Shown one piece after another: positions 7,671 to 9,005 of a DNA stretch of 64,000 nucleotides. The notes beneath the pieces were generated by a model. It was not told the origin of the DNA, ran no database searches, and was given only the letters and a program-made list of their open reading frames with translations. The translations under genes and the position numbers were made by a program. Within the stretch, counting starts at the first letter, position 1. Each line of letters begins with the position of its first letter. Source of the DNA: Escherichia phage vB_EcoM_G2133; sequence record MK327928.1; one strand, given 5' to 3'.

Positions 7671-7853
7671 TTAACCTTTAGAAATTTTATCCATAGCAAT
7701 AGCGATTAAACCAATTAAAAATGCTACTACAAGTGAAAAAACATTTTCTGCCGTAGTCAATAATCCGCATATAAATCCAACAAACATTGAAAAACTGAAA
7801 GCAGAAGCAGAAATTGCAATAGCAACATTTCGAATTAATTCACAGCGTTTCAT
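7671..7853 (-). CDS. small membrane protein, unknown function
   Basis: About 60 aa from MKRCELIRNV with GAGGAG RBS; one hydrophobic helix (FSFSMFVGFICGLL...VVAFLIGLIAIA); the longer ORF-track version overlaps the upstream gene. Confidence 0.5.
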   Translation of the reverse strand: MKRCELIRNVAIAISASAFSFSMFVGFICGLLTTAENVFSLVVAFLIGLIAIAMDKISKG

Positions 7854-7881
7854 TTTATTCTCCTCAGTAGTTGATAGGGTA

Positions 7882-7911
7882 ATAGTATCACTACCCCATC
7901 TAAAAGTAAAT
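7882..7911 (-). promoter_or_regulatory. early-type promoter repeat
   Basis: Minus strand ATTTACT, 17-nt spacer, TACTAT; shares the ttgatagggtaatagtatcac core with 8168..8188. Confidence 0.4.
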
Positions 7912-8145
7912 TTATTTTTTACGAAAAATTGATTTATTTTCTGCTGCCCATTTTTCAATAACTGCAGCAGGACCAGTAACAACAATTTTATCACCGTAAT
8001 CTTCTGCGGCGAGTTGACCGAAATTATCTAATGCATCACGAAGAACTCCATGAGGCATTTCACCCATTTTATCTTTCTTGCCAGTGTAAATAAACTCAAC
8101 TTTTACATCAGCAGTTTCAGCAATAAATTCTTGGTAAGTTTTCAT
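7912..8145 (-). CDS. internal protein (ipI-locus type) with capsid targeting sequence
   Basis: From the internal Met the protein begins MKTYQEFIAE, the T4 internal-protein capsid targeting sequence; located between the tRNA cluster and 57B, the T4 ipI position. Confidence 0.65.
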   Translation of the reverse strand: MKTYQEFIAETADVKVEFIYTGKKDKMGEMPHGVLRDALDNFGQLAAEDYGDKIVVTGPAAVIEKWAAENKSIFRKK

Positions 8146-8177
8146 TTTAGTTTCCATTCGATTGTTTTGATAGGGTA

Positions 8178-8207
8178 ATAGTATCACAACTAAAACCCTA
8201 TGTAAAC
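8178..8207 (-). promoter_or_regulatory. early-type promoter repeat, GTTTACA-N17-TACTAT
   Basis: Identical 30-nt block tgtaaacaactttgtgaaattattttaaat at 8201..8230 and 8531..8560. Confidence 0.45.
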
Positions 8208-8219
8208 AACTTTGTGAAA

Positions 8220-8477
8220 TTATTTTAAATCTTCTAATCGTTTTTTCATCTTAGAACCATTTTTAGCAATTTCTCCTGCATCGGAGCATAATGCTAAAAG
8301 TGCTTTAACTTTCGTTTGGTCTCCTTTAAAAGATGAAGGATCTACTGCAGCAGCAAGTTCTTTAATACGAGAGAAAAGACGCTCAGCTTCAGCTAAAGCC
8401 ATTCCAAGCTTTACTTCCATACCGTGGGAAGATTCAGTGATAGTAGTTTTTGTAGCAAACTCTTTGAAAGTTTTCAT
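8220..8477 (-). CDS. internal-protein-like protein, paralogue of the 732..1013 product
   Basis: N-terminus MKTFKEFATK is capsid-targeting-like; shares KLG.AL.EAE.L..RI.ELA...EIAKNGS.MK.RLE with the ORF at 732..1013. Confidence 0.5.
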   Translation of the reverse strand: MKTFKEFATKTTITESSHGMEVKLGMALAEAERLFSRIKELAAAVDPSSFKGDQTKVKALLALCSDAGEIAKNGSKMKKRLEDLK

Positions 8478-8507
8478 TTTATTTTCCTAATTAATTTTGA
8501 TGAGATA

Positions 8508-8537
8508 ATAGTATCACTACCTCATCAGCATGTAAAC
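8508..8537 (-). promoter_or_regulatory. early-type promoter repeat, GTTTACA-N17-TACTAT
   Basis: Same element as at 8178..8207; precedes the 8220..8477 gene. Confidence 0.45.
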
Positions 8538-8549
8538 AACTTTGTGAAA

Positions 8550-9005
8550 TTATTTTAAATCATCTGCCCAATCGAGTTTAAGAGGCTCTTTGTATTCACG
8601 ATCTAATACGACCGGAATTTGTACATCACCGCTAAATGATAAGGGCCCAACATTATAAGACAATGTTATATGCGGTGTGTAATCATCAAAATCATGTGTA
8701 GCACCTAGTGCCCGCGCATACATGTGTCGACAGCGCAGATATTCAGAATCTAGCACAAGTACAAGAGTCGATCCATCTTGTGTTTTCCATACTTCTAAAT
8801 GTCCAGAAGAAGCTACTTCAAAACTTCCGCTTGATGGAACATACGGAACATTTACTCTTGAATAACATATGGTCGAATGAATTTTTTCTCTAGGAACTGG
8901 ATTAGGAACACGTAAAGAGCGCTGAAGTTCTTCCAGCGCATCAAGTGTTAATTCTGAAAACTTAGCTGCTACATAAAGACCCGTTGAAAAGTCTTTAAAT
9001 TCCAT
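8550..9005 (-). CDS. 57B: 2H phosphoesterase, Acb1-like anti-CBASS cyclic-oligonucleotide phosphodiesterase (T4 gene 57B position)
   Basis: 151-aa ORF adjacent to 57A as in T4; two H-x-T motifs (HSTI near residue 43, HITL near residue 112) typical of 2H phosphoesterases. Confidence 0.7.

Follow-up and report, generated by a model that had tools for sequence, protein, structure and literature searches.

The internal protein (IP) locus of Escherichia phage vB_EcoM_G2133 was analysed in a stretch of 64,000 nucleotides of its genome (sequence record MK327928.1), hereafter called the window. An original prediction, made from the sequence alone, had singled out three consecutive small genes, each preceded by the same promoter cassette, and had proposed that these repeated junctions are the signature of gene shuffling by recombination. 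A 2-kb query around this region matched 699 phage records, the best of them being the Yersinia phages PYps32T and PYps47T (98.2%), T6 (98.0%) and PST (97.6%). By sequence comparison, the source of the window is a Tequatrovirus sharing about 98% identity with T6, PST and PYps32T. Following the annotations of T6, PST and T4, the gene order on the minus strand is gene 1, 57A, 57B/Acb1, ip5 (ipV), ip6 (ipVI), trna.4, trna.2, an HNH endonuclease gene and the tRNA cluster.

The variable part of the locus is held between two conserved anchors. The left anchor is the gene 57B/Acb1 (8550..9005, minus strand, 151 aa), which is annotated gp57B in PST and T4 and whose product matches the Acb1 family (Pfam PF23474) over residues 8-149 with 202.7 bits, against a cutoff of 27. 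Acb1, the gp57B of T4, is an anti-CBASS phosphodiesterase. The right anchor is trna.4 (7671..7853, minus strand, 60 aa, PHROG 1692), adjoined by trna.2 (7381-7668, minus strand). The product of trna.4 is hydrophobic, is annotated as "putative membrane protein" in RB33 and contains two predicted membrane spans (Kyte-Doolittle windows of 19 residues above 1.6 over two stretches). It had been recognized as a membrane protein from the outset, and only the start of its gene had to be corrected, to the ATG at 7853.

Internal proteins Ip5 and Ip6

The two genes located between the anchors are intact and their products have full-length PHROG matches. The gene ip5 (8220..8477, minus strand) encodes an internal head protein of 85 aa (PHROG 3499 "internal head protein", 1.2e-49), whose counterparts are annotated ipV in PST and Ip5 in RB33. 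The gene ip6 (7912..8145, minus strand) encodes an internal virion protein of 77 aa (PHROG 8111 "internal virion protein", 1.2e-52), whose counterpart is annotated ipVI in PST. Both proteins begin with a short leader, MKTFKEFATKTTITE followed by Ser in Ip5 and MKTYQEFIAE followed by Thr in Ip6, and these are the only two leaders in the window that start with MKT[F/Y][K/Q]EF and end in (I/L)-x-E. The leaders end in ITE (Ip5) and IAE (Ip6); the prohead protease of T4 cuts at (I/L)-x-E sites.

Similarity to IPI of T4, whose leader starts with MKTFKEF and is thus nearer to the leader of Ip5, is limited in BLASTP to residues 1-26 of Ip5 and 1-14 of Ip6. The leader alone is therefore shared: no similarity could be detected between the two mature proteins, or between either of them and T4 IPI, and orthology of either gene with T4 ipI is rejected. 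The protein starting with MKTYQEFIAE had been called "ipI-type" in the original prediction; this description holds for its leader and its locus, not for its orthology, since the protein is Ip6 (IpVI) and not IPI. True ipI alleles fill the same slot in T4, SA20RB, KAW1E185 and 121/2022-2B. A literature search on Ip5, Ip6, Ip7 and Ip9 returned unrelated matches only. In T4, the injected proteins Ip1, Ip2 and Ip3 are inhibitors of GmrSD type IV restriction enzymes, a different one for each protein, and an anti-defence role after injection is, by analogy, probable for Ip5 and Ip6. These two would reach the head by means of their leaders, be cleaved by the prohead protease after ITE and IAE, and be injected with the DNA, then neutralising host defences in the manner of T4 Ip1-3.

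Promoter junctions, repeats and hairpins

Each of the genes ip5, ip6 and trna.4 is preceded by the same early-promoter architecture, as had been claimed. On the minus strand, a junction is composed of an A/T-rich tract that holds the stop codon of the preceding gene, a -35 box (G)TTTAC[A/T], a spacer of 17 nt, the sequence GTGA-TACTAT (a TGn-extended -10 box), and a short leader with a ribosome-binding site (RBS) and the ATG; the motif TTTAC[AT]-N17-TACTAT, with TGn, comes right after the upstream stop. The first junction (J1, from 57B to ip5, 8478..8565) contains the stop at 8552-8550, an A/T-rich UP-like tract, the -35 TTTACA at 8536-8531, TGn and the -10 TACTAT at 8513-8508, hairpin arms at 8527-8519 and 8506-8498, a predicted +1 near 8501, a Shine-Dalgarno (SD) sequence AGGA at 8488-8485 and the ATG at 8477. 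In the second junction (J2, from ip5 to ip6, 8146..8235, minus strand), the same elements are the stop at 8222-8220, the -35 TTTACA at 8206-8201, TGn and the -10 TACTAT at 8183-8178, hairpin arms at 8201-8195 and 8176-8170, a predicted +1 near 8171, a weak SD sequence GGA at 8155-8153 and the ATG at 8145. The third junction (J3, from ip6 to trna.4, 7854..7939, minus strand) contains the stop at 7914-7912, the -35 TTTACT at 7910-7905, TGn and the -10 TACTAT at 7887-7882, hairpin arms at 7900-7893 and 7880-7873, a predicted +1 near 7875, the SD sequence GAGGAG at 7865-7860 and the ATG at 7853. The -35 boxes are located 14, 14 and 2 nt downstream of the stops ending at 8550, 8220 and 7912, respectively.

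All three junctions, with their 17-nt spacer and TGn, match the consensus TTTACW-N17-TAYWAT of the PST/T4 PeSLs, composite elements whose name stands for promoter-early stem-loops and which are defined in the last section. They also agree with the literature, where T4 early promoters are described as UP/-35/TGn/-10 promoters and as unusually information-rich. A generic sigma-70 scan with TG called two of the three. From this match to the T4/PST early consensus, the junction promoters are expected to fire immediately after infection. Neither late promoters (TATAAATA) nor MotA-type middle promoters occur within 7850-8560, the nearest being found at 7629, 9610 and 7377, and a literature search on mapped start sites for T4 ipI or trna.4 gave nothing usable.

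Two further observations concern the details of the junctions. The spacers of J2 and J3 (8184-8206 vs 7888-7910) permute two short blocks, TTTAC-ATAGGGT-TTTAG-TTGTGA in the former and TTTAC-T-TTTAG-ATGGGGT-AGTGA in the latter, so that the 5' hairpin arm is in a different register and the 3' arm is unmoved; this permutation may be the trace of a slipped recombination. The RBS of trna.4 (GAGGAG, 7860-7865) contains GGAG, the motif cut in early mRNAs by the T4 endoribonuclease RegB. An e.8-like gene elsewhere in the window also has GGAG, in cttGGAGaatgaaATG near 4840, and the RBSs of ip5 and ip6 are devoid of this motif.

The junctions are linked by several repeats. The 30-nt block TGTAAACAACTTTGTGAAATTATTTTAAAT is present in exactly two copies, at 8201-8230 and 8531-8560, the positions originally given, and none of 100 dinucleotide-preserving shuffles yielded a match to it. 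The exact identity in fact covers 32 nt, at 8530..8561 (copy 1, minus strand) and 8200..8231 (copy 2, minus strand), and 35 of 36 nt are identical between 8200-8235 and 8530-8565. The block comprises the 3' end of a gene, the UP-like tract and the -35 box. On the coding strand it starts with GAT TTA AAA TAA (D-L-K-stop) and thus includes, as had been noticed, the last codons of both the Acb1-like gene 57B (DDLK-stop, in J1) and ip5 (EDLK-stop, in J2). A crossover between the two copies would remove ip5. The second repeat is a 21-nt core, TTGATAGGGTAATAGTATCAC, which covers the -10 and the 3' hairpin arm. It is found in exact copies in J2 (8167..8187, minus strand) and J3 (7871..7891, minus strand) and with three mismatches at 8497-8517. 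The exact repeat had been correctly detected, its two positions (7870..7890 and 8168..8188) each being one base off. A crossover between the exact copies would remove ip6. With a repeat finder, these elements merge into a three-copy family of 71 nt (7869-7939, 8165-8235 and 8495-8565). A second homologous patch covers the SD sequence, the start codon and the opening codons of the capsid-targeting leader, and is 78% identical between ip5 (8442..8487, minus strand) and ip6 (8110..8155, minus strand). In an end-to-end alignment of 124-126 nt, the junction tracts 57B/ip5 and ip5/ip6 are 77% identical.

The variant of the core that had been reported near 4850 is real. Positions 4847-4873 are 81% identical to 7864-7890 and positions 4887-4916 are 80% identical to the 30-nt block. 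This variant is the early promoter (4865..4916, minus strand; -35 at 4893-4888, -10 at 4870-4865) of the e.8-like open reading frame (ORF) 4558-4833. The TTTCACAAA...TTTACA block and the ATCAACTACTGA leader of the junctions recur in it, but a hairpin is absent (fold z-score of +1.09).

In each junction, an inverted repeat overlooked in the original prediction brackets the -10 box, with stems of 8-13 bp. The arms are TGATGAGGT...ATCTCATCA in J1, ATAGGGT...ACCCTAT in J2 and GATGGGGT...ACCCTATC in J3. The RNA of the sense strand folds with -14.8 kcal/mol (z-score -4.03), -19.4 kcal/mol (z-score -5.15) and -16.1 kcal/mol (z-score -3.85) in J1, J2 and J3, respectively, and the antisense RNA is weaker (-8.2, -16.6 and -8.2 kcal/mol). 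In 14 distinct junctions from nine phages, 96.4% of the stem cells are paired, two stem pairs are changed on both sides and G-U pairs are frequent; when the 3' partner is slid by one to three columns, only 33-65% are paired. A DNA cruciform or palindromic operator is disfavoured, because the DNA folds are weak (-4.9 to -9.5 kcal/mol), the antisense RNA folds less stably than the sense RNA, and the arm sequences differ between copies yet still pair, often via G-U. The G-U pairs, together with the weaker antisense and DNA folds, favour an RNA structure. Since the own transcript of each junction is predicted to start inside the 3' arm, the hairpin could form only in RNA reading through from upstream. 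In such sense-strand read-through transcripts, it would act as an attenuator, an insulator or a 3'-end stabiliser. No known RNA family coincides with the hairpins, Rfam at E<=0.1 over 4400-9400 giving only tRNAs and sub-threshold noise.

The IP locus is not the only place with such junctions: a further one separates the e.8-like ORF, whose stop is at 4558, from the ORF 3971-4516. Its promoter (4528-4556, minus strand, TTTACA-N17-TATTAT) carries a 10-bp stem ACAGGCTCAT/ATGAGCCTGT (arms within 4510-4565) that also brackets the -10, and this hairpin is the strongest of all (-22.4 kcal/mol, z-score -6.25).

Natural variants and probable recombination at the locus

The window was compared with the loci of 14 annotated phages. 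Among these 15 loci, at least ten gene architectures were found between 57B and trna.4, with zero to three IP genes, consistent with the hypervariability of the ipI locus in T-even phages that the original prediction had invoked. No gene is present in bov9_1. A single IP gene is found in pSs-1 (Ip5), pSe_SNUABM_01 (Ip6), T4 and SA20RB (IpI), and JoYop and phi25-307 (Ip7). Two are found in the window, T6 and PST (Ip5+Ip6), in 121/2022-2B and KAW1E185 (IpI+Ip6), in Lv5cm (Ip9+Ip7) and in LF82-7 (IpI+Ip7), and three in RB33 (Ip5+Ip9+Ip7). The same promoter-hairpin junction precedes every gene, including those of two Mosigvirus genomes. Among about 700 records carrying the flanks, the Ip5 body is present in 251 and the Ip6 body in 221. 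At least 159 independent phage records, T6 and PST included, display the arrangement of the window over at least 80% of a 911-nt query.

The two Mosigvirus genomes that share the locus design are LF82-7 and phi25-307. In LF82-7, the junction proximal to 57B has a different, perfect 8-bp stem (AGGATGAT/ATCATCCT) overlapping the -10; the structure is kept and the sequence of the arms is replaced.

The products of recombination between the repeats were predicted in silico and compared with real genomes. Deletion between the 21-nt cores gives a product of 700 nt that is 98.4% identical to pSs-1 without gaps. Deletion across both repeat families gives a product of 370 nt that is 97.6% identical to bov9_1, also without gaps. 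Deletion between the 30-nt blocks gives a product 97.0% identical to the IMG/VR contig L016, with a junction region identical base for base. This contig was recovered by scanning IMG/VR for a conserved 20-mer, a search that returned only seven loci, one of them being this natural ip5-deletion variant. Each deletion predicted from the repeats thus exists as a natural genome.

Traces of exchange are also visible inside the junctions. Chimeric junctions, with the 5' arm of one type and the 3' arm and leader of another, are found at ip6/trna.4 in PST and at ip9/ip7 in RB33 and Lv5cm, and in all three the switch point lies in the invariant -10 loop AGTGATACTATTA. No fewer than four different settings of promoter and leader precede the Ip6 body. 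The first codons of its gene read MKTYQEF in the window and T6, and MKTFKEF in pSe_SNUABM_01 and PST; likewise, Ip9 starts with MKTYQEF in RB33 and MKTFKEF in Lv5cm. The leader type therefore tracks the slot and not the IP body, and from the sequences the homology used for exchange reaches into the leader codons. These slot-specific leader codons, taken with the variants bounded by repeats, place crossovers in at least three patches, namely the 3'-end/-35 block, the -10 core and the leader codons. Such a distribution fits general homologous recombination over about 125 nt of homology better than a single site-specific crossover.

From these sequence comparisons, the locus is very probably the ipI-side IP locus of a T-even phage, situated between 57B/Acb1 and trna.4 and occupied by the alternative genes ip5 and ip6, with junctions that mediate shuffling by recombination. 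The anatomy of the junctions, the polymorphism of the locus in the population and the position of natural breakpoints inside the repeats are shown by the sequences, and the match of the in-silico recombinants to real genomes supports the claim that the identical junctions are a signature of gene shuffling. In this reading, each gene unit begins with a junction of about 70-125 nt. The prior stop, within an A/T-rich UP-like tract, is followed there by a T4 early promoter whose -10 is flanked by an inverted repeat, then by a short leader with RBS, the ATG and the next codons, so that the first 7-10 codons of the capsid-targeting sequence (MKT[F/Y][K/Q]EF...) are included. Because the junctions recur in direct orientation every ~300-330 bp, the very active homologous recombination of T4 could perform unequal crossovers between them. 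These would delete, duplicate, insert or replace the IP bodies in between, and each product would retain its own strong early promoter, RBS and packaging leader.

Several points weigh against this interpretation. Breakpoints inside a repeat are inherently ambiguous. Perfect identity is confined to short patches of 32, ~21 and ~14 nt, near the lower limit for efficient homologous exchange. No Pfam family was found for Ip5 or Ip6, and a search for relatives of solved structure returned none. Finally, no U-tract follows the stem at any of the three junctions, the tails being AAATTAATTA, CAAAACAATC and AACTACTGAG, and a standard scan for intrinsic terminators called no junction hairpin. For these last two reasons, a role of the junctions as canonical intrinsic terminators is unsupported. 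The annotators of the related phage SA20RB called terminators at the equivalent junctions with WebGeSTer and TransTermHP.

An improbable alternative is that the repeats are conserved only through the long, constrained consensus of T4 early promoters (UP, -35, TGn, -10 and initial transcribed region), without any role in exchange, the locus varying by other means. The information-rich nature of these promoters speaks for it, and so does the TTTAC[AT]-N17-TAYWAT core shared by unrelated early promoters of the window (4893-4865, 4556-4528, 3998-3970 and 728-700), one of which also has TTTCACAAA and the ATCAACTACTGA leader. However, the identity enters the last codons of two unrelated proteins as well as spacer positions that are variable in other early promoters. 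Moreover, the natural variants equal the in-silico recombinants with not one gap, and the chimeric junctions and slot-specific leader codons reveal exchange inside these very sequences.

Equally doubtful is an exchange that would be specific of a structure or a site. Here, the promoter hairpin would be bound or cut by a dedicated activity, such as a junction-resolving nuclease, and cassettes would move as small circles, following the PeSL mini-circle model, in an integron-like fashion. Compensatory changes do maintain the hairpin, several chimeras switch in the invariant loop AGTGATACTATTA, and mini-circles of PeSLs were detected in phi1 and RB49 by Arbiol 2010 (PMC2839356), where site-specific recombination was kept as a possibility. 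In its full form, which we regard as just as unlikely, the hairpin would be a structure-specific recombination site and the IP locus would function like an integron array carried by a phage. Its anti-restriction cassettes would leave as circles of 296-330 bp and re-enter at any hairpin-promoter, and the leader would form a second, in-frame exchange boundary, so that an incoming body would be expressed early and packaged. Against such a mechanism, crossovers fall in no fewer than three separate stretches of sequence (the 32-nt block, the -10 core, the leader codons), the folding evidence given above favours RNA over a DNA cruciform, circles from the IP locus would measure only 296-330 bp, and no integrase-like gene is annotated at the locus in T4, T6 or PST.

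That the duplicated junctions are an artefact of sequencing or assembly, due to a repeat being collapsed or wrongly joined, is an idea for which only the general risk that repeats pose to assemblers can be invoked. It is excluded, because the 159 independently sequenced genomes (at least 80% coverage), T6 and PST among them, have the identical gene order and junctions, and because both flanked ORFs are intact with full-length PHROG matches.

Other differences from related phages were noted downstream of ip6. The gene trna.3 (411 nt), present between trna.4 and trna.2 in T4, T6, PST and nearly all relatives, is precisely absent from the window at 7660-7680, between the stop of trna.4 (7673-7671) and the ATG of trna.2 (7668). 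The junction left by this loss reads AAAGGT followed by TAATAATGATT and resembles a crossover in the short stop/start overlaps AGG(T/C)-T(G/A)ATAATG, so it is apparently not a promoter-junction event. The loss trims the final residue of the trna.4 product (KISKG vs KISKGE). Of the top 12 records, a single one, that of Salmonella phage F13076, likewise has trna.4 directly followed by trna.2. The HNH endonuclease ORF (6662-7273, minus strand; PHROG 14736, 5.5e-124) directly follows tRNA-Leu, at the place where T4, T6 and PST have tRNA-Gln, and no tRNA-Gln was found in the cluster of the window. This arrangement is present in 63 records, including slur03, slur08, slur14 and T4_ev240, and looks like a homing-endonuclease insertion or replacement. 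Lastly, ARAGORN predicts a 94-nt "tRNA-Lys (ttt)" at 5105-5198 (minus strand), which the Rfam tRNA model does not confirm at E<=0.1; in T4, the equivalent position is that of the small stable RNAs rnaC and rnaD.

Relation to known exchange systems

The shuffling mechanism is already published, so that the original prediction is a rediscovery: it was proposed by Repoila et al. in 1994 and generalised in 2010 and 2014. According to Arbiol 2010 (PMC2839356), Repoila et al. 1994 described "PeSL-like sequences" at the two IP loci. In the same article, a PeSL is defined by an upstream stop in an A/T-rich tract, an early promoter, a stem-loop between or overlapping the boxes, a Shine-Dalgarno sequence and a start codon, and PeSLs are reported to concentrate in hyperplastic regions, at the boundaries of indels. 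The IP elements of T-even phages are described there as using T4 early promoters and weaker, AT-rich stem-loops, and as possibly being behind the plasticity of the IP loci. Comeau 2014 (PMC4122927) extended the PeSLs to PST/T4 and repeated the point made by Repoila et al. As far as these accounts of the 1994 work go, its elements do not differ in substance from those of the window. They concern the same ipI-side locus next to 57B, with alternative IPs (later named Ip5, Ip6, Ip7 and Ip9) sharing an N-terminal leader, and an element, proposed as the agent of shuffling, in which an inverted repeat overlaps a T4 early promoter. The window is then a further allele, Ip5+Ip6 without trna.3.

By sequence, the junctions of the window have every feature of a PeSL, and terminator activity alone is unsupported. 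They resemble the published PeSLs (PMC2839356, PMC4122927) in their composite layout, their location in a hyperplastic region and the indels and replacements between close relatives, and their promoters match the consensus exactly. They differ from the PeSLs of RB49 and phi1, to which the T-even IP elements were termed analogues and not homologues (PMC2839356), by T4-type promoters and weaker AT-rich stems without polyG/polyC. In PST, the stems of the PeSLs are placed just upstream of the promoter in a figure legend (PMC4122927), whereas the stems of the window bracket the -10. The window stems have no U-tract, so that terminator activity cannot be assumed. Ip5 and Ip6 resemble IPI, IPII and IPIII of T4 in their small size, their locus class and their leader MKT[F/Y][K/Q]EF ending in an (I/L)-x-E protease site. 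They differ by their mature parts, without detectable similarity to T4 IPI, and GmrSD targets are known for T4 Ip1-3. The comparison with integron cassette arrays, which are also made of small exchangeable genes in tandem, mostly related to defence or adaptation and separated by imperfect inverted repeats, is an analogy only. Indeed, the IP locus has no integrase and no attI or attC, each of its cassettes has its own promoter, and its crossover points are dispersed.

To this published picture, the window adds one more allele, natural counterparts for every predicted deletion and current database counts of the Ip5 and Ip6 bodies. T-even phages maintain an exchangeable repertoire of injected anti-defence proteins, which ordinary recombination alters with expression and packaging left intact. 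The locus is a useful background for the prediction of host range and, among the many IP bodies not yet characterised, for the discovery of new inhibitors of type IV restriction enzymes.

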